Shown here in pieces: positions 2,097 to 59,569 of a stretch of 64,000 nt of DNA. The stretch is from contig DAOMFV010000012.1 of the NCBI GenBank assembly GCA_035430005.1, positions 591-64,590 of the forward strand, in the 5' to 3' direction. Source of the stretch: Gemmatales bacterium (GTDB taxonomy: Bacteria > Planctomycetota > Planctomycetia > Gemmatales > HRBIN36). How positions within the stretch are numbered: the stretch's first letter is position 1; each line of letters opens with the position of its first letter. The notes beneath the pieces were generated by a model. The model had not been told where the DNA came from. It made no database searches and saw only the letters and a list, made by a program, of their open reading frames with translations. Both the position numbers and the translations under genes were made by a program.

Positions 2097-3446
2097 CTAC
2101 GCAGCTAGTTTAGTCTCGCTCCGCTCTATGTTGCCAACCACTGCCTTCTGCTGGGCGCGCAGTTGGCTGAGCGCCACCGCACAGCCTGCCAGCAATAGCA
2201 AGGTCTTGATGGTGACAGCTCCGTAGTACAAGCTGACCCGTGCCACATACTCGCCCCACCAGGTCAAGGCGATGAAGCCAATCAGGTTGGCAACGATGAA
2301 CAACGTGCCTATCGCCTTGCTTCGCTGCTCCCACGCTACCTTCGCCAGCATCATGCCGGGCAGGATCAGGATGCAGAAATGCGACTTGCTCGAAACTGGC
2401 GAAAAGAGCACCATCAGCATCAGCACCATGCTGTACTCCAGCCCCGGCTCATACGAGAAGATCGGAGCCGTGGTAGTGCCCTTGAAGCTGCCCCCTCGCC
2501 AGAACCCCAGGACGCAGATGGCCAGCAGCACTGCTTGAACTCCGAGCAAACCCAGCTTATAGACCATCGGGGGCAGAGCCGGCGTCAGGTTGATCAACTG
2601 CATCGATCCGTTCGACCAGGTCCAATCGTAAAGGAACATCCGGCTCATCATGCCGGCCAGAGCCTGGTTGTAATAGACGAGCGTTCCCCAACTGCCTGGT
2701 GTGTAGTTGGGATTCTGGAATTGCACGAGGTAGGTATTGATCCAACCCCCCAGCCAGGTGCTCGCTGTGGGACATTGGCTGATCAGATCAGGCAGAAGAT
2801 TGATGCCCACAGCCACTGCAATCATCCAGAGAGTAGCCAGCCACTGTCGATGCCAGAGTAGATAGAGACAAAAGAGAAACGGCGTGGCTTTCAGCCCGGC
2901 AGCGATGCCGAACATCGCAGCAGCCAGGAGTACCCGTCGAGACGACATAGCCACACAGCCTGCGATCATGAAGACAGCTTCGACGAGATCGGTCGCCTGG
3001 TTCGAGAGACCATTGAAGACATAGAAGATGCCCGTGAGAATACCGGCCAGCCAGATGAAATGGTTGGCAGTGAACTTCGTCACCGGTTCGAGTTTGAGGC
3101 CACCTGCCAGTTTCCACATCCACTGGCACAGCAGCACCAGGCACACGACATTGAGCATCCACCATGCCACTTGCTGCCCCCAGGCGGGAAGAGCCAGAAA
3201 CGGGACGATCAGCAGCGCTCGAGCCGGTGGGTAGGCAAAACCAAGCTTGTGTTCATACATGTCCTTGCCATGCACCATTTGATCGGCTGCACGGACATAT
3301 AGTTCAGTCCACGGAGAGTTCGGAGACGCCAGGTAGGTGACCAGGTATCCCAGCATGATGCAACTGGTGATCAAAGTAATCGGATGAGTGCGCAGCCAGT
3401 TGAGGATGCGAGACAACGGCGTGGTCGACACGGTGGTAAGATTCAT
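2097..3446 (-). CDS. polytopic membrane glycosyltransferase, GT87/DUF2029-like
   Basis: Multi-TM ORF with an early FAYPPARALLIVPF motif, reminiscent of DUF2029 mannosyltransferase-like proteins. The start is placed at ATG 3446 (MNLTTVS...) rather than at the TTG at 3503. Confidence 0.55.
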   Translation of the reverse strand: MNLTTVSTTPLSRILNWLRTHPITLITSCIMLGYLVTYLASPNSPWTELYVRAADQMVHGKDMYEHKLGFAYPPARALLIVPFLALPAWGQQVAWWMLNVVCLVLLCQWMWKLAGGLKLEPVTKFTANHFIWLAGILTGIFYVFNGLSNQATDLVEAVFMIAGCVAMSSRRVLLAAAMFGIAAGLKATPFLFCLYLLWHRQWLATLWMIAVAVGINLLPDLISQCPTASTWLGGWINTYLVQFQNPNYTPGSWGTLVYYNQALAGMMSRMFLYDWTWSNGSMQLINLTPALPPMVYKLGLLGVQAVLLAICVLGFWRGGSFKGTTTAPIFSYEPGLEYSMVLMLMVLFSPVSSKSHFCILILPGMMLAKVAWEQRSKAIGTLFIVANLIGFIALTWWGEYVARVSLYYGAVTIKTLLLLAGCAVALSQLRAQQKAVVGNIERSETKLAA

Positions 3447-3512
3447 TGTAGGGGTACCTGAATTTTGGTACCACTTCTTACCGCAATAGGTAATTTTGCA
3501 CAACCGCAGCCT

Positions 3513-3605
3513 GTAGACGCGGCTTCCAGCCGCGTCAGCGGAGATATGATCATAGTTCGAACAGGTAACTTAGTTACTGCTGACGCGGCTGGAAGCCGCG
3601 TCTAC
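3513..3605. repeat. 27-bp perfect inverted repeat with internally palindromic arms
   Basis: GTAGACGCGGCTTCCAGCCGCGTCAGC (3513-3539) and its exact reverse complement (3579-3605). Each arm is itself a hairpin (GACGCGGCT/AGCCGCGTC). The centre contains the palindrome GTAACTTAGTTAC. Confidence 0.9.
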
Positions 3606-6532: not shown

Positions 6533-6607
6533 ATACCAGCCCGACGCGCTAGCGAGGGAGGCCTTGGCGATTGCACGCGCTCCCTCGCTAGCGCGTCGGG
6601 CTGGTAT
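6533..6607. repeat. PAL-A palindromic element, copy 1
   Basis: The arm ATACCAGCCCGACGCGCTAGCGAGGG pairs with CCCTCGCTAGCGCGTCGGGCTGGTAT around a ~23-nt core (AGGCCTTGGCGATTGCACGCGCT). Confidence 0.9.
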
Positions 6608-14694: not shown

Positions 14695-14760
14695 GAGTAA
14701 TACTCAAAGGGCAGGACGCCTTGAGCATACTCATTTTCAGCATGAAAAACCACGAGGAAT

Positions 14761-14947
14761 ATTTAGCCCCCGGCTCTTCAAGCCGGGGGACGATCACGCG
14801 AAGACTGGATGGTAATGATGAAAGTACAACAAGGCGAGGCGCGCGGAGTAATGAGACACCATCACCGAGTTTCGCCTTTTGTTAATCTTGGAGACGTAAT
14901 ACTCGCCCAGCGTGATCGCCCCCGGCTTGAAGAGCCGGGGGCTAAAT
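14761..14947. repeat. 38-nt inverted repeat pair flanking a 110-bp core (MITE-like module)
   Basis: ATTTAGCCCCCGGCTCTTCAAGCCGGGGGACGATCACGC (14761-14799) matches the reverse complement of 14910-14947 with a 1-nt indel. Each arm contains its own 9-bp hairpin. The right arm starts 3 nt after the prfB stop. Confidence 0.85.
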
Positions 14948-14950
14948 GAT

Positions 14951-16061: not shown

Positions 16062-16084
16062 GGAGGACTCCTTTGGAGGTGATA

Positions 16085-16157
16085 TGACAGCCCGACGCGC
16101 TAGCGAGGGTGGACCTTGCGATTGTACGCGCCCCCTCGCTAGCGCGTCGGGCTGTCA
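16085..16157. repeat. PAL-A palindromic element, copy 2
   Basis: TGACAGCCCGACGCGCTAGCGAGGG ... CCCTCGCTAGCGCGTCGGGCTGTCA, with the core in the same orientation as copy 1. Confidence 0.9.
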
Positions 16158-16172
16158 TCAAACTGAGTATTG

Positions 16173-39656: not shown

Positions 39657-39689
39657 GTCTTATGGAGAATGGTTAGCATGAGTACACGC

Positions 39690-39841
39690 AGAGGCCGTCC
39701 GGTAATTCGAAAGACGAGGAACATGATTCCAGGCCTTATTAAGATGGGTAAATCAGAGAGGACAGCAAATGACTTTGTCCCCTCTAACTACACATACAAA
39801 ATGGCCCTGAAAATAGCCTCTTGAATTACCGGACGGCCTCT
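39690..39841. repeat. 19-bp perfect inverted repeat flanking a 114-bp core (MITE-like module)
   Basis: AGAGGCCGTCCGGTAATTC (39690-39708) and GAATTACCGGACGGCCTCT (39823-39841). Confidence 0.85.
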
Positions 39842-39953
39842 ACACGCAAACCATGGCACACAGAGCTCAGCGTTGTGAGCTAACCGCCGCTCCCCCTCAC
39901 CCCCAGCCCCTCTCCCTCCGGGTGAGAGGGAAGCCAGACGAAGACCAACAACT

Positions 39954-52000: not shown

Positions 52001-52408
52001 ATGCCGTTCTCTATTCCCTGGTTGTCGGTTATGGCAGCGGCGATCGCCTACTTTGTGCTGGGCGCGCTGTGGTATGGTTACTTCGGCGATGCCTGGCTGA
52101 AAGAACTGCATAAACGTAAAGAACAACTCGATACCAAAGACCCTGCCCCCTATCTGGTAGCGGCTCTGGGGGCCGTGCTGAACGCGACAGCTACCGCTGC
52201 CGTTCTCGGCTGGGTGATGCCTTCTACGCAAACCACGCTTCTGGCAGTGTTCATCACCACGCTCTTTCTGGGTGGAGCTGTAGTGGCTGCCGGCGCGGCC
52301 AAACATTATGCTTTTTCGGGCTGGTCGTGGAGACTTTACGCCATCGATATGGGGCATGATCTGGCAGGCTTCTTCCTCATGAGCCTGATCATCGCACTAC
52401 TGAAGTAG
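52001..52408 (+). CDS. DUF1761-family membrane protein
   Basis: N-terminus WLSVMAAAIAYFVLGALWYGYFGDAWLK, four TM segments, and a length of about 135 aa. Confidence 0.6.
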   Translation: MPFSIPWLSVMAAAIAYFVLGALWYGYFGDAWLKELHKRKEQLDTKDPAPYLVAALGAVLNATATAAVLGWVMPSTQTTLLAVFITTLFLGGAVVAAGAAKHYAFSGWSWRLYAIDMGHDLAGFFLMSLIIALLK

Positions 52409-53519
52409 CGACTTCAGGAATCGCTCCACCCCTGACGGGCCTGCCTTTCCACTGCACGAGAATCATCATCGCCATCCCGGCGGCAAATAACCCGATGCTG
52501 ATTGTCTGCGAGATGGTGAAGTTGCCTACATACTCAGGATTATCCAACCGCAGTTGTTCAATGAGGTAGCGGTTGATGGAGTAGGTCATCATAAGCAGGG
52601 CGATGACCGCCCCTTCTCTGCGTCGCAACGGATAGTATGCCGAAAGCAGCAGGCACAGGATGATTCCATCCAGCGCCATGTAGAGTTGCGTTGGCAACAG
52701 GGGCAGGCTCGGCGGGGGCACAAACGTCAGATTCTTCGTTTCTCCATGGCGTTTGACGGTGATCGTCACTTCTTCGTAAGGTCTGACAGCGATCAATGCC
52801 TGGTTGATGGCATCTCGTGTCAGCGTGGCGTGCCCATTGATCGATTCAACGAGATCGTCTTTTTGCAGTCCAGCCTTCTCAGCCGAAGAACCAAAGTCAA
52901 CAGCAACGATGGTGCAGTCATCCTTGATATCCATGCCCAGTTGCATACCAAATGTTGTCTGCCAGCCTCGCAGCCAGACGACTTCATGATAAGGATTGCT
53001 ATTGGCAGGAAATTGCACAGTCATCGAACTGGGCACATGCGCGGGGTCAGCGACATCGCCATAACAGCAGCCATTGAGGAAGCAGCCTATCCGACCGAAA
53101 GCAATGCCCAAGGCAATGGAAGGCGCCAACCAGTCGGCGATTTGCAGCGTTCGCACCTTGGCCGGCTTTGCTACATAGCGATACGCCAGCAGGTACCCCA
53201 GAAGACCCCCTGGAATCGCACCATAGAGCACCAGGCCCCCTTCCCAGATCTTGACGAACTGCTGAATGCCTTCCCAGAGGTTTATGGGCGGTTTCTGATC
53301 GACAAACATTGAGAGCAACCGAGCACCAATGACACCGCCAACGAAGATATACAGCCCCACGTCCCACGGTATGGTAGAGAAATACCCTTCCCGCTTCGCC
53401 CGTCGTCCCGCGAGCCAAGCCGATGCCACGAAGGCGATGATCAGCATCACGCCGAAGCCAAAGATGGGCATTCTGGCATCGCCGAAGGGCAGGGGGATGT
53501 AGAAGAGGACTTGTCGCAT
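52389..53519 (-). CDS. lgt: prolipoprotein diacylglyceryl transferase with an inserted PDZ-like domain
   Basis: Lgt signature FGRIGCFLNGCCYG and an Lgt-like N-terminus. An extra ~90-aa segment (AVDFGSSAEKAGLQKDDLVESINGH...VTITVKRHGE) looks PDZ-like. The gene overlaps the convergent DUF1761 gene by 20 nt. Confidence 0.85.
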   Translation of the reverse strand: MRQVLFYIPLPFGDARMPIFGFGVMLIIAFVASAWLAGRRAKREGYFSTIPWDVGLYIFVGGVIGARLLSMFVDQKPPINLWEGIQQFVKIWEGGLVLYGAIPGGLLGYLLAYRYVAKPAKVRTLQIADWLAPSIALGIAFGRIGCFLNGCCYGDVADPAHVPSSMTVQFPANSNPYHEVVWLRGWQTTFGMQLGMDIKDDCTIVAVDFGSSAEKAGLQKDDLVESINGHATLTRDAINQALIAVRPYEEVTITVKRHGETKNLTFVPPPSLPLLPTQLYMALDGIILCLLLSAYYPLRRREGAVIALLMMTYSINRYLIEQLRLDNPEYVGNFTISQTISIGLFAAGMAMMILVQWKGRPVRGGAIPEVATSVVR

Positions 53520-53581
53520 GGGGGTATTCTACACAAGAGTCGAAAATCGCACTATGGCAGATGACAATGATTAGAGAGCCA

Positions 53582-55099
53582 TTACCAATCGATTTGCTCC
53601 CAGACAGCCAACAGCTTGGCTCCCTTTGCTCGATTAACCTCTGCCATTGCAGCAATTCTGCCTCGAAGATGTTCAGGAAAATCAGGATGTTGATAACGGT
53701 TCTGGCTGGCACCCCCCTGCTTGTTGCAGTTATGCAGAATCGCTTTCAGTTCGTCATACTCGGCACGGCGGACATTGCACTTTTCGTTGACGACTACGCC
53801 GCACACTTCCTGTCTTTGACTTTGCCGCATGAGATGGGTTTTCTTCAGGTTCAATCGGAAGCCTTCTTGTTCAACGATGGTGTGCATCAATGTCATCATC
53901 GAAAGACGTGTACGCCCTAGTGGACGATCTCCGGAGAGAGTGAGATCATCGGCGTAGCGGGTGTAGTGCCAGCCTTTTTGTTTTGCCAGATAAGCTAGGC
54001 GAAGATCAAGATGATAGGCAGCCAGATTGGCCAATGCCGGTGAAGTGGGCGCGCCCTGGGGCAAGTGACGTTCACGCCAGCATTTCATCTGCAGCCATTG
54101 CTCAGGCTGATGATCGTACCGTGGATGGGTACGCCAAACCTCATCCGGGGTGGCCTTGGTACAGAGCGCAGCCAGGTTGCGAGCTACCGTCCGGGGATAC
54201 CCCATGCGGCGGAAGATGGCCATCACCTTGAACTGATGCACGGAAGGAAAGAAGTCAGCCAGATCGAAGCTAATGACCACTTCCTGCTTCAGATGCTGTT
54301 TGGCATTGGTCACGATCGATCGCCCGGCACGAAAGCCATGGACCGCAGCGTGTGGCGGAGCCTGATCGAGGATGCCATGCAGAATCTTCCGCTGAACGTT
54401 CTTGAGTCTGAGCTTGGGTATCTCCAGCAACCGGACTTTTCCCCGCTTGGAAGGTACCCAGCGGTAGCGGTAGTGATGCCGTGGGCCGAGGGGGAGATGC
54501 TGCTGTATCCCATGAAGATCAGCGAGTCCTTCGAGTTGATGAACCGACAGTCCCAGGTACTCGGCCAAGGCCGATAATGTAGTAATTGCCGGCACAGGCC
54601 ATCGTTCCCAGATTGTCTGCATCTGTGGTGAAGGACTGGGGATCTTCCGAAGTCTGCCTTTTGATTCTCGGTCGGTCAGCCAGGTGATTAATTTAAGTTG
54701 TATCAACTCGCCATAATCCTTGGTCCAATGCCGTCCTGGTGTTCCAATCTTCGGACAACGATAAAGCTGATGCAACAACGACTCTTCATCCATCATTCTG
54801 TTCTGAATGAGTCGATAATACTCGGCCACCGGTTTGGCTAAAGACTTGGGCAGCCCCAGTCGCTTCTTCAGATGTGCAACGAATTCATCAGCCGACCGGG
54901 TCTCCAGCAGCACAATAGCTACCAGCCGAAGCAGACGCCTTTTCAGTTTATATCGATGGTTGATCACTATCGGGCGTCTCACGCATTTCTGCGGTAAGAC
55001 TGTCGAGGTAAAGGAAAAGTGCCTGGCAGCCCAACGAGGCTCGTGATGCGAGGCCAATTCTGTGTGAAGCACAGTCGCGGCCTTGCTCGGAAATGTCAC
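53582..55099 (-). CDS. retron-type reverse transcriptase with N-terminal extension
   Basis: RT motifs are close to Ec86: HYRYRWVPSKRGKVRLLEIPK, NAKQH (NAxxH), ISFDLADFFPSV, LPQGAPTSPALANL, YTRYADDLTLS, VCGVVVNEK (VTG-like) and HLRGRIAAMAEVN. The longest ORF starts at GTG 55099. In-frame GTG 54982 or 54967 are alternative starts downstream of the candidate ncRNA. Confidence 0.85.
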   Translation of the reverse strand: MTFPSKAATVLHTELASHHEPRWAARHFSFTSTVLPQKCVRRPIVINHRYKLKRRLLRLVAIVLLETRSADEFVAHLKKRLGLPKSLAKPVAEYYRLIQNRMMDEESLLHQLYRCPKIGTPGRHWTKDYGELIQLKLITWLTDRESKGRLRKIPSPSPQMQTIWERWPVPAITTLSALAEYLGLSVHQLEGLADLHGIQQHLPLGPRHHYRYRWVPSKRGKVRLLEIPKLRLKNVQRKILHGILDQAPPHAAVHGFRAGRSIVTNAKQHLKQEVVISFDLADFFPSVHQFKVMAIFRRMGYPRTVARNLAALCTKATPDEVWRTHPRYDHQPEQWLQMKCWRERHLPQGAPTSPALANLAAYHLDLRLAYLAKQKGWHYTRYADDLTLSGDRPLGRTRLSMMTLMHTIVEQEGFRLNLKKTHLMRQSQRQEVCGVVVNEKCNVRRAEYDELKAILHNCNKQGGASQNRYQHPDFPEHLRGRIAAMAEVNRAKGAKLLAVWEQIDW

Positions 55100-55182
55100 A
55101 GGCAGGATATCCCCGGGGTAACCCCGGAGTGCTCATCACTCTGTTTCCAAAGTAACAAACTGCTTGAGCTGCCAGGCACTTT
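55016..55182 (-). ncRNA. candidate retron msr/msd non-coding RNA (a1/a2 inverted repeats)
   Basis: On the RT strand, AAAGUGCCUGGCAGCUCAA (55182->55164) pairs with UUGGGCUGCCAGGCACUUU (55034->55016). That is 19 bp, of which 15 are contiguous perfect and one is a G-U pair. The first unpaired base after a1 is G (55163) in an A-G-C context. Internal hairpins are GAGUG/CACUC, CUCCGGGG/CCCCGGGG and CUGUG/CACAG. Confidence 0.4.
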
Positions 55183-55204
55183 GGCATCATAACACTCTTT
55201 CGCA

Positions 55205-55243
55205 CGATGAAAACGACAAAACGGGGAACCATGGTCCCCGTTT
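55205..55243 (-). terminator. Rho-independent terminator of tsf
   Basis: On the minus strand, AAACGGGGA pairs with TCCCCGTTT around a 7-nt loop, followed by TTGTCGTTTTC. It begins 31 nt after the tsf stop. Confidence 0.75.
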
Positions 55244-55273
55244 ATCGCTTGTCATTATTTAGGATGCAAATGA

Positions 55274-56122
55274 CTAGCTCAACTCACCCACCTTGAACCG
55301 CTTGAAGCTCACCACTTCCAGTTTGGTGGGGGCCAGCACGTCGGCGATGGTCTTGCTGTCGTCCTTGACGAACTTCTGTTCGACCAGCACGTTCTCGCTT
55401 GTCCAGGTCTTGACCTTGCCTTCGACGATCATCTGAATGACCTTCTCGGGTTTGCCGGTAGCCTTGGCCTGAGCTTCAGCGATCTCGCGTTCCTTGGCGA
55501 GCACTTCAGCGGGAATGTCGCCACGCAGGGCATACTTGGTCTGCGAAGCGGTGATGTGCATGCCCACTTCCTTGAGCAGGGCATCGTTCACATTGGTGGT
55601 CGCGCCCTTGAGCTGGAGCAGAGTACCGACCGTGCCATCGTGGTGGATGTACTGGCCAAACGGACCGCCGGTGAGGACAGCGAACCTGGCAATCTTCATG
55701 TTCTCACGGATGAGGCCGATCAACTCTTCGATGCGATCCTTGACCGTTCGCTTGCCATCGAAGCTGGCAGCGTTGAACTCATCGACGGAAGAAGGAACCT
55801 TGGCAGCCTTCACCAGCCACTCGGCAAGCTCGTTACCGAGCTTGATGAATCCATCAGCCTTCGTGACCGGCGCGCTTTCGCAGCGTAGTTCGACGATGGC
55901 AGCTTTGCTGTGATCGGGAGTGACATGGATGAAGACTCGCCCCTCGGCTGCTTCACGGTCGGCTTTGCCGGCAGCGATGTTGGCGTTGCGTTTGCGGAGT
56001 TCGTCCATCGCCTTCTGGAAGTCGCCGCCCGCTTCGGTGAGGGCCTTCTTGCATTCCATCATCGGGCGGTCGGTCATGTTACGCAGCCGCATCACGTCGG
56101 CGGCATTGATTGCAGTGCTCAT
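55274..56122 (-). CDS. tsf: elongation factor Ts
   Basis: The N-terminal UBA-like motif VMRLRNMTDRPMMECKKALTEAGGDFQKAMDELRK is typical of EF-Ts. It lies downstream of rpsB, as in the conserved operon. Confidence 0.92.
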   Translation of the reverse strand: MSTAINAADVMRLRNMTDRPMMECKKALTEAGGDFQKAMDELRKRNANIAAGKADREAAEGRVFIHVTPDHSKAAIVELRCESAPVTKADGFIKLGNELAEWLVKAAKVPSSVDEFNAASFDGKRTVKDRIEELIGLIRENMKIARFAVLTGGPFGQYIHHDGTVGTLLQLKGATTNVNDALLKEVGMHITASQTKYALRGDIPAEVLAKEREIAEAQAKATGKPEKVIQMIVEGKVKTWTSENVLVEQKFVKDDSKTIADVLAPTKLEVVSFKRFKVGELS

Positions 56123-56140
56123 GGGTCAGTCCTTCATAGA

Positions 56141-56303
56141 GGAGTCAGGAGCCAGGAGTCAGAATCAAGCAGAGACTGAGCTTGGGCTACCGAGTCCTGA
56201 TTATCGTTAGTCAGGTCAACGAAGTTATTAGTTGAGAAGCAGAAGTCAGTGAGCATGTTCGCCAGATTGTCTTATTCTGGCTACTGACTCCTGACTTCTG
56301 GCT
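56141..56303. repeat. imperfect inverted GAGTCAG/CTGACTC-rich arms in the rpsB-tsf spacer
   Basis: GGAGTCAGGAGCCAGGAGTCAGAAT (56141-56165) against ATTCTGGCTACTGACTCCTGACTTCTGGCTACT (about 56275-56303). Confidence 0.5.
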
Positions 56304-56304
56304 A

Positions 56305-57255
56305 CTATTCACCAGCGGGCTCGGCTGCAGGGGCTGCCGGCACTTCGGGCTTGTCGCTGGAAGGATCGGCTGGGGCGTTACGACCACGATCGCCACCTCG
56401 GCCGCCGCCACGATTATCGCTGCGACCGCCACGTCCACCACGATCTCCATCACGCCCGCCGCGATCACCGCCTCGACCGCCACCGCCTCCACGGCGATCA
56501 CCCTTGCCTCGGCCTCGCTCGCCACGTTCTTCACGTGGCTTCTCTTCGAGTTGCTTCAGCAGTTCGGGAGGAATCGCTGCCTTGCCTTCGATGACTGCCT
56601 GGGCCAGCTTGGACAGAATCAGCTCAATGGAACGGATGCTATCGTCGTTGCCGGGAATGGGAAGATCGACCATGTCAGGATCGCTGTCGGTATCAATCAG
56701 GGCCACCACGGTGACGCCCATCTTGCGGGCTTCCTTGACGGCAATGTGTTCCTTGTGCGGATCAATGATGATGAGCGCTTCCGGGATGCGGTTCATGTCG
56801 CGGATGCCGGAGAGATTGCGGTCGATCTTCTTTCGTTCACGGGTGATCGAGCTGATCATCTTCTTGGAGTAGGTGTTGATCTGGCCGGTCGTTTCAAGAG
56901 ATTCGAGGTGGGTCAATCGCTGGAGTCGGCTACGGATGGTACGGAAGTTGGTGAGTGTGCCACCCAACCAGCGTTCGCTCACGCAGGGCATGCCGCAGCG
57001 CTGAGCTTCCCGAACGACGATTTCCTTAGCCTGTCGCTTGGTGCCGACGAACATCACCAACTTGCCCTGGCTGACGATCTTGGTGACATACTTGTAGGCA
57101 CGCAGCAGACCACGCAGGGTTTCGCGGAGATCAATAATATGGATGAGATTTCGTTTGCCGTAGATATACGGCCGCATCTTAGGGTTCCAGCGACTGGATC
57201 GGTGTCCATAGTGTACGCCGGCATCGACTAGTTCTTTCACTTCGATCAGAGCCAC
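56305..57255 (-). CDS. rpsB: 30S ribosomal protein S2 with Arg/Gly-rich C-terminal extension
   Basis: [31 protein letters not shown] is the S2 signature. The C-terminal ~80 aa are RGG/RGD-rich ([49 protein letters not shown]). Confidence 0.92.
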
Positions 57256-57406
57256 ACAATCCTCCAGGCCCTAGTGTAGGGCAGCTTGCAATCCCTGGTC
57301 ACGGCGGCCTAGACAAGGCCGATGCCGTTACGCGCCATGCACAACCACGGGTCTATTAATGTAGGGTTGAAAGGGGCCGCTGGACAGGGTATGGTAGCCA
57401 ACATCT

Positions 57407-59569
<2,163 letters not shown>

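Follow-up and report, generated by a model that had tools for sequence, protein, structure and literature searches.

A predicted msr-msd RNA of conserved size upstream of an effector-less retron reverse transcriptase in a Gemmatales bacterium and its relatives in at least five phyla

The region at 55182-55016 on the minus strand of the window (the whole stretch of DNA that was analysed, 64 kb from a Gemmatales bacterium) is, with a probability that we put at roughly 0.85, the msr-msd non-coding RNA (ncRNA) of a stand-alone, that is effector-less, retron whose reverse transcriptase (RT) is encoded immediately downstream. Comparative analysis showed a conserved, covarying RNA that has the anatomy by which retrons are defined and is strictly linked to a retron-type RT. 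At the level of sequence comparison, a single homologous RNA of about 169 nt, predicted to be msr-msd, was shown to accompany a large, untyped and effector-less family of retron RTs in at least five phyla. The type of element is already described; what is new are the coordinates, a corrected start of the RT and the sharing of the RNA across the family. The features are the following.

55219-55243, minus strand: intrinsic terminator of tsf, with a 9-bp stem, a 7-nt loop and a T-tract
55186-55213, minus strand: promoter-like element TTTTCA-16 nt-TATGAT with TG before the -10, by consensus match
55016-55182, minus strand: whole predicted retron ncRNA (msr-msd), 167 nt, from the fold, the close-clade homologues and a covariance model
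55164-55182, minus strand: a1, the 5' arm of the closing stem, from the inverted-repeat search and compensatory changes
55163, minus strand: predicted branching (priming) guanosine, first unpaired base after a1
55131-55160, minus strand: msr hairpin 1, 13 bp with many G-U pairs and a GAAA loop
55111-55129, minus strand: msr hairpin 2, CUCCGGGG-UUA-CCCCGGGG, an 8-bp G+C hairpin and the most conserved element
55104-55110, minus strand: AU-rich linker AUAUCCU, read from the sequence, predicted stop of reverse transcription
55035-55103, minus strand: msd, the predicted template, which would be copied from G55035 towards 55103
55086-55048, minus strand: conserved msd hairpin with covarying pairs
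55016-55034, minus strand: a2, the 3' arm of the closing stem, from the inverted-repeat search and compensatory changes
53582-54967, minus strand: retron-type reverse transcriptase, 461 aa from the conserved GTG 54967

On the minus strand, a1 (55182-55164) reads AAAGTGCCTGGCAGCTCAA, also written AAAGUGCCUGGCAGCUCAA, and a2 (55034-55016) reads TTGGGCTGCCAGGCACTTT, also written UUGGGCUGCCAGGCACUUU. In the repeat search these arms of 19 nt each were 95% complementary as DNA and lay 129 nt apart. As RNA on the RT strand, they form 15 perfect pairs, one U-G pair and then three more pairs, which gives a stem of 19 bp with 18 Watson-Crick pairs and one G-U pair. The original prediction had described precisely such a 19-bp pairing with a perfect run of 15 nt, and both the reading of the strand and the repeat search confirmed it. 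Ungapped stems with arms 70-280 nt apart and a score of at least 47 numbered only six on the minus strand of the whole 64-kb window; the best stem score was 47 at a1/a2, compared to a median best score of 28-30 in shuffled or control regions of 650 nt.

RNAfold, which the original prediction had proposed as a check, was run on the 181-nt segment 55190-55010 (minus strand) and gave an energy of -84.4 kcal/mol. The corresponding value for 200 dinucleotide shuffles of the same segment was -57.4 +/- 4.3 kcal/mol, and 0 of the 200 matched the native energy (z = -6.3). The minimum free energy (MFE) fold contained the closing a1/a2 stem, the 13-bp G-U-rich hairpin, the 8-bp G+C hairpin with its UUA loop and a longer imperfect hairpin. 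The opposite (plus) strand also folds well, with -80.2 kcal/mol, and therefore energy alone cannot assign the strand. We take the strand of the RNA to be fixed by conserved G-U pairs, those of msr hairpin 1 being of this kind, together with the co-orientation with the RT. A search of 53000-57500 against Rfam 15 at permissive thresholds matched no relevant family.

Conservation of this RNA was analysed at two evolutionary depths. The close clade consists of the window and five other distinct sequences, with RTs 58-81% identical to the window RT; the contig of P0007 ends before the RNA and contributes no RNA sequence. In all five other sequences, an RNA of about 167 nt was found directly upstream of the RT, and the two subclades of the clade differ from each other by compensatory changes. 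Among the six sequences both sides have changed in 15 of the 59 modelled pairs (five in a1/a2, five in hairpin 1 and five in the msd hairpin), and 90.9% of the cells of the alignment were paired versus 37-44% in slid controls. A metagenome-wide scan with the core motif of hairpin 2 returned only a contig that was already included and one chance match, from which we conclude that the close clade is rare in that collection. The chance match reads as coding sequence and, in our reading, carries motifs typical of a histidine kinase.

The wider family comprises 80 loci from a genome scan, with RTs 39-51% identical, which belong to Planctomycetota, Acidobacteriota (Bryobacterales), Myxococcota, Solirubrobacterales and other Actinomycetota, as well as Burkholderia and other Proteobacteria. 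A covariance model, R1, was built from the six close-clade sequences only, the window included, and scored the window RNA at 182.9 bits. In 77 of the 80 distant loci, R1 found a full-length match on the strand of the RT and immediately upstream of it (median length 169 nt, E-values of about 1e-15 to 5e-4). Homologues lacking a conserved inverted repeat had been named beforehand as the observation that would speak against a retron; the opposite was found, with the stem conserved through compensatory changes and present at these 77 loci. The family alignment was fitted to the R1 structure, so that its pairing percentages lean high: 88.6% of cells were paired against 35-46% in slid controls, with compensatory changes in 56 of the 59 pairs, and in the case of a1/a2 all 18 modelled pairs covary and 94% of cells are paired (87 rows). 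The slid controls and a stem search carried out free of any alignment guard against this bias. The latter recovered, in at least 31 loci, stems in which an arm ending in CAA and followed by G pairs with an arm beginning with UUG, at a distance of about 165-175 nt.

Two guanosines stand out at the inner end of the closing stem. G55163 lies in the context A55164-G55163-C55162, and 74 of 78 family sequences have a G right after a1, with A before this base in 73 and C after it in 62. This bears out its earlier designation as the first unpaired base after a1 within an A-G-C context. At the position of G55035, immediately 5' of a2, a G is likewise found in 74 of the 78 sequences. A priming G within a conserved AGC at the inner stem end is the classical retron geometry (PMC6868368). 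Judged by the retron criteria for the priming G and the template-start base (PMC6868368, PMC10849725), G55163 and G55035 match the two guanosines of classical retrons.

In the enclosed part of the RNA, compensatory changes extend family-wide to all 13 pairs of msr hairpin 1. Msr hairpin 2 is invariant in the close clade; across the family it is 99% paired with five covarying pairs, has a U-G wobble in 73 of 87 rows and follows the consensus CTccGGGGttACCCCngGG. It is the probable recognition hairpin of the RT. The AU-rich linker follows, and the end of retron RT-DNA usually comes before an AT-rich stretch (PMC10849725). Helices 7-10 of the msd hairpin are 85-99% paired family-wide. With both ends placed by prediction, the msDNA would be roughly 65-70 nt long. 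Of the internal structure originally proposed, a long-range GUGAUG/CAUCAC helix found no comparative support. This helix is present in our MFE fold, yet in the close clade it is 74% paired without covariation, family-wide the figure is 48-58%, and the helix was rejected as a conserved element. A small ACGA/UCGU hairpin beside a2, suggested by RNAalifold, contains only invariant or broken pairs and was likewise regarded as unsupported.

Upstream, the RNA had been placed after the tsf terminator and just downstream of a TATGAT hexamer. This arrangement is correct: the terminator occupies 55243-55219, and TATGAT, at 55191-55186, ends 3 nt before a1. The terminator would set the retron transcript apart from rpsB-tsf, and transcription from the promoter-like site would begin near the 5' end of a1. 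At the equivalent position, the sequences of the other subclade show a TTGACA-16-TA(C/A)CGT element.

The protein encoded downstream is a retron-type RT, as supported by PADLOC models, PDB sequence matches and fold matches. The open reading frame 53582-55099 (minus strand) matched RVT_1 with 8e-23, and the PADLOC models RT_other, RT_outgroup and RT_XIII gave 3e-138, 4e-131 and 3e-99 (460, 436 and 331 bits, respectively). NAKQH at 221-225 (region X), YADD at 338-341 and VCG at 388-390 (region Y) were identified, and the columns of the NAxxH histidine, the V-x-G glycine and YADD are invariant across 65 homologues. NAxxH and VTG are retron-specific motifs (PMC7736814); the window RT has VCG in place of VTG (T to C), and the family motif is V(T/C)G. 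A sequence search of the PDB returned retron RTs exclusively, with Ec86 as the best match (4e-32). Using an AF2 model of the RT (pLDDT 84.8), the best 18 PDB matches of the fold search were all retron RTs, led by Ec86 7v9x_A (E-value 1.9e-19, target-normalised TM 0.81). The N-terminal approximately 120 aa form a helical extension modelled with low confidence; the PDB matches align with the RT core alone, and this extension had no match in Pfam.

Where the RT begins decides whether part of the RNA region could be coding. The longest open reading frame in the RT frame starts at GTG 55099 and spans 505 aa, so that 39-44 N-terminal residues would be read from within the predicted RNA. The frame is open from 55099, and the gene call of locus L084 also starts inside the RNA, with an HHE(L/P)R(C/W) stretch in the same frame there. 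An identical protein of 461 aa is however on record (P0001) and starts at GTG 54967, and in L085 the equivalent RNA segment and the RT lie in different frames. Of 77 family loci, 65 have a stop codon in the frame of the RT either within the RNA or behind it. Moreover, the substitutions are compensatory in base pairing and not codon-like. We therefore consider the 55099 start an artefact, as the original prediction had suspected when it noted that this start would translate through a2, and a coding nature of the region highly improbable. As to the true start, the GTG 54982 named previously is in frame and would add 5 aa but is not conserved, and it is the less likely of the two; the start is probably the conserved GTG 54967, around which the codon context I-V-(I/A)-N is common to the window, L081 and L090. 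Depending on this choice, the RT would begin 33-48 nt downstream of the RNA in the window; across the family, a median of 10 nt separates a2 and the first start codon, and the start assigned by PGAP in Burkholderia agrees with a start after a2. Public gene calls in the RT family often begin inside the RNA or too far downstream. A chance origin of the inverted repeat, or its being a terminator or a REP-type palindrome without relation to the RT, is just as improbable as a coding region. The window does hold other long palindromes, and the good fold of the plus strand could be read in the same way. The tsf terminator is however a separate element upstream, the strand is fixed by the conserved G-U pairs, and the RNA accompanies the RT at 77 of 80 loci, in differing contexts and always on the RT strand. 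The comparative data refute a chance repeat.

A further explanation accepts the RNA and its link to the RT and disputes its use as a template. It could be a structured 5' leader that only regulates translation or stability of the RT, with a2 occluding the region of ribosome binding, and that is never reverse transcribed. The short median distance between a2 and the start codon would allow the stem to mask the ribosome-binding site, an effector is absent, and heterologous tests of some retron clades yielded no RT-DNA (PMC10849725). Such a leader would nevertheless have no need for two conserved guanosines at the inner stem end, nor for a covarying internal hairpin of fixed size or a length kept near 169 nt in at least five phyla, and every characterised RT of the clade uses such an RNA as primer-template (PMC6868368, PMC7736814). 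We hence regard it as unlikely. Slightly less probable again is a non-retron RT-ncRNA system similar to DRT2 or DRT9, in which the RNA would template concatemeric or homopolymeric cDNA and not branched msDNA. DRT2 and DRT9 RT-ncRNA complexes do appear among the fold matches, at ranks 19, 28 and 48, and several DRTs are stand-alone like the present RT. Against this, retron RTs reached E-values of 1e-19 to 1e-11 with a target-normalised TM of up to 0.82, versus 1e-9 and 0.43 for DRT2; the PDB sequence search gave retron RTs only, the retron motifs NAxxH and V-x-G are present, and a closing a1/a2 stem with its G is a retron signature. Altogether, an msr-msd RNA of a retron remains the preferred reading.

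In retron ncRNAs, an msd hairpin comes after one to three msr stem-loops. The present locus shows the corresponding features: a structured ncRNA upstream on the same strand, a1/a2, the predicted priming G, two msr hairpins and one msd hairpin. Genes in the neighbourhood of the window RT are rpsB, tsf, an lgt-PDZ gene, a DUF1761 gene, ligA and a PALP-domain (PLP-dependent) enzyme. All-against-all clustering of the open reading frames of 92 loci revealed no conserved partner gene besides the RT; an open reading frame of 238 aa further downstream was common to only 7 loci. Neither the accessory domains of type XIII nor defence genes were found around the window RT, and no effector gene adjoins the RT in the window or is conserved in the 80 related loci. 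Apart from the N-terminal domain of about 120 aa of the RT itself, no additional module is present. The conserved or fused effector of the typed tripartite defence retrons (I-XIII) is consequently missing, which leaves the tripartite defence model incomplete.

The order tsf-RT-lgt is shared with L081 and in part with L090 and L094, and the identities run in parallel (tsf 95% and 87%, RT 81% and 67%, lgt 82%), which fits vertical descent within this planctomycete-like lineage. The sister subclade has its retron immediately downstream of a 23S-5S rRNA operon. These are core-genome positions (after rpsB-tsf, after the 23S-5S rRNA operon), and the divergence is in step with tsf and lgt. In Burkholderia, the neighbours of the retron are metabolic genes. 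In collections of phages and plasmids, the matches were limited to Burkholderia chromid copies and to distant RTs with the generic annotation 'reverse transcriptase family protein'.

Among described systems, the retron is closest to the PADLOC RT_other and RT_outgroup models, which are untyped. Stand-alone (msr-msd)-RT cassettes are known from RT clade 11 and, within clade 2, from the Retron-Eco5 (Ec107) branch (PMC7736814). Like these, the present family consists of an RT with an upstream ncRNA, has no effector, is located away from defence islands and bears signs of vertical inheritance. Members from Actinomycetota are a further likeness to clade 11. Clade 11 was however described as essentially actinobacterial, whereas the present family has many members in Planctomycetota, Acidobacteriota and Myxococcota and is found in Burkholderia as well. 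In the case of Ec107, related RTs score far lower on the window RT (4e-59). Judging by its stand-alone architecture, its fit to an untyped model and its relatives in actinobacteria, our best guess is that the family corresponds to Mestre clade 11.

The nearest typed model is RT_XIII (3e-99), which represents RT clade 10 with Mx162, Mx65, Sa163 and Ne144. Similarities to type XIII are the N-terminal extension of the RT, a priming G in (C/G)AGC that ends a long a1/a2 and vertical inheritance in the hosts (PMC6868368, PMC7736814). Type XIII however has linked genes for a SWIM Zn-finger/winged-helix protein and a HEAT/ARM protein, and neither is conserved beside the RT family or the window RT. Type XIII is recognised by an RT of clade 10 that is linked to cluster-114 DEDE/WH/SWIM and HEAT/ARM genes; at the present locus RT_XIII ranks only third among the models and no such genes were found, and in 8 family members, myxobacterial ones included, RT_other/outgroup scored above RT_XIII by 170-230 bits. 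Judged from these scores and genes, the family is a relative of type XIII (Mx162/Mx65) and not a member of it. With Retron-Eco1 (Ec86), the structural reference, the locus shares the logic of the ncRNA (a1/a2, an AGC with the branching G, hairpins in the msr and one in the msd), but Ec86 is a type II-A3 retron with an NDT effector, and its RT has 320 aa, is without the N-terminal domain of about 120 aa and is 27-28% identical to the window RT.

From these features, the following sequence of events can be proposed. A promoter between the tsf terminator and a1 would drive a transcript that carries the ncRNA and the RT open reading frame. Pairing of a1 with a2 would bring G55163 and G55035 face to face at the inner end of the stem, and the RT would dock on the msr hairpins, most likely on the near-invariant CUCCGGGG-UUA-CCCCGGGG. 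The 2'-OH of G55163 would then prime synthesis, the RT would copy the msd from G55035 through the conserved hairpin, and it would stop near the AU-rich linker at about 55104-55110. The product would be a branched msDNA of roughly 65-70 nt.

In terms of function, sensing of phages through a partner in trans or through the N-terminal domain of the RT appears most likely, and a role other than defence is a real alternative. More specifically, a vertically inherited, effector-less retron lineage that was domesticated for a role other than defence can be put forward as a tentative idea, less probable than not being so. That certain RT clades are rarely near defence genes was noted earlier (bioRxiv 10.1101/2020.06.21.156273), and the function of orphan retrons was called an open question (PMC7736814). 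Among retrons in general, msd stems vary widely, from 10 to 50 bp (PMC7736814); in contrast, the RNA of the present family keeps its length of about 169 nt and its conserved msd hairpin across at least five phyla. If true, this fixed length and conserved hairpin would fit an msDNA with a cellular partner that is specific for its sequence or shape, or alternatively an N-terminal domain of the RT that acts as a built-in effector.

The analysis provides coordinates that can be tested, namely G55163 as the predicted branch point, G55035 as the predicted start of the template and a length of about 65-70 nt for the msDNA. The covariance model R1 could be used to annotate members of the RT family, and the family may supply compact RT/ncRNA pairs for editing tools. 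Its size, its frequent chromosomal location and its housekeeping surroundings make the family a sensible starting point for asking what orphan retrons do.

In the sister subclade of the close relatives, the retron was located directly 3' of an rRNA operon (L084:1-470, L084 being the contig of one such relative). The rRNA features at this locus are:

L084:1-125, 3' end of the 23S rRNA
L084:315-424, 5S rRNA

The 5S rRNA is followed by a terminator hairpin, by a promoter-like TTGACA of the retron and then by the ncRNA. This rRNA-operon site is a further core-genome insertion context of the same retron lineage.

In public records the retron RNA has led gene calling astray at L082:907-1137, L083:504-734, L085:1905-2081 and L084:657, and antisense ORFs of 58-76 aa were annotated over it. 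Among the recorded RT proteins of close relatives, the start of P0004 was called within the retron RNA, and those of P0003 and P0006 were called far 3' of the true N-terminus.

Regarding the genes that flank the retron in the window, the one 3' of the RT (52389-53519) encodes Lgt, the prolipoprotein diacylglyceryl transferase, into which a PDZ domain is inserted (residues ~198-265). This architecture is kept in the related contigs L081 and L094. On the other side, 56305-56560 (minus strand) is the C-terminal part of rpsB. Beyond the Pfam S2 domain (residues 9-224), the encoded ribosomal protein S2 extends into a C-terminal tail of ~90 aa in which RGG/GDR repeats abound.

Several inverted repeats were detected elsewhere in the window. 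A near-identical perfect palindrome is present in two copies (6533-6607 and 16084-16158), both with arms of 26-28 bp (CAGCCCGACGCGCTAGCGAGGG...CCCTCGCTAGCGCGTCGGGCTG) and each adjoining the end of a long ORF; the pair has the look of a repeated palindromic element of the REP-like kind. At the 6533-6607 copy the retron covariance model gave a weak, spurious match. Between an 823-aa ORF and a 359/366-aa ORF, 14760-14948 holds inverted repeats of 30 bp spaced by 129 nt, with both arms themselves G+C hairpins (GCCCCCGGCTCTTCAAGCCGGGGG). Paired bidirectional terminators are one possible reading of them, and a small cassette (mobile or sRNA) is another. At 39683-39848, within an intergenic gap, 26-bp terminal inverted repeats enclose ~110 nt of A+T-rich sequence in a MITE-like layout. 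Lastly, a perfect inverted repeat of 27-29 bp with a 35-nt spacer (3513-3605) lies just beyond ORF 2097-3503.

In the case of the distant loci, a 238-aa ORF was found downstream of the RT and on the same strand at L010:1524-2240 and in six other loci, so that no more than 7 of the 80 share it. Possibly this ORF is a lineage-specific accessory gene in the present, otherwise stand-alone, retron family.
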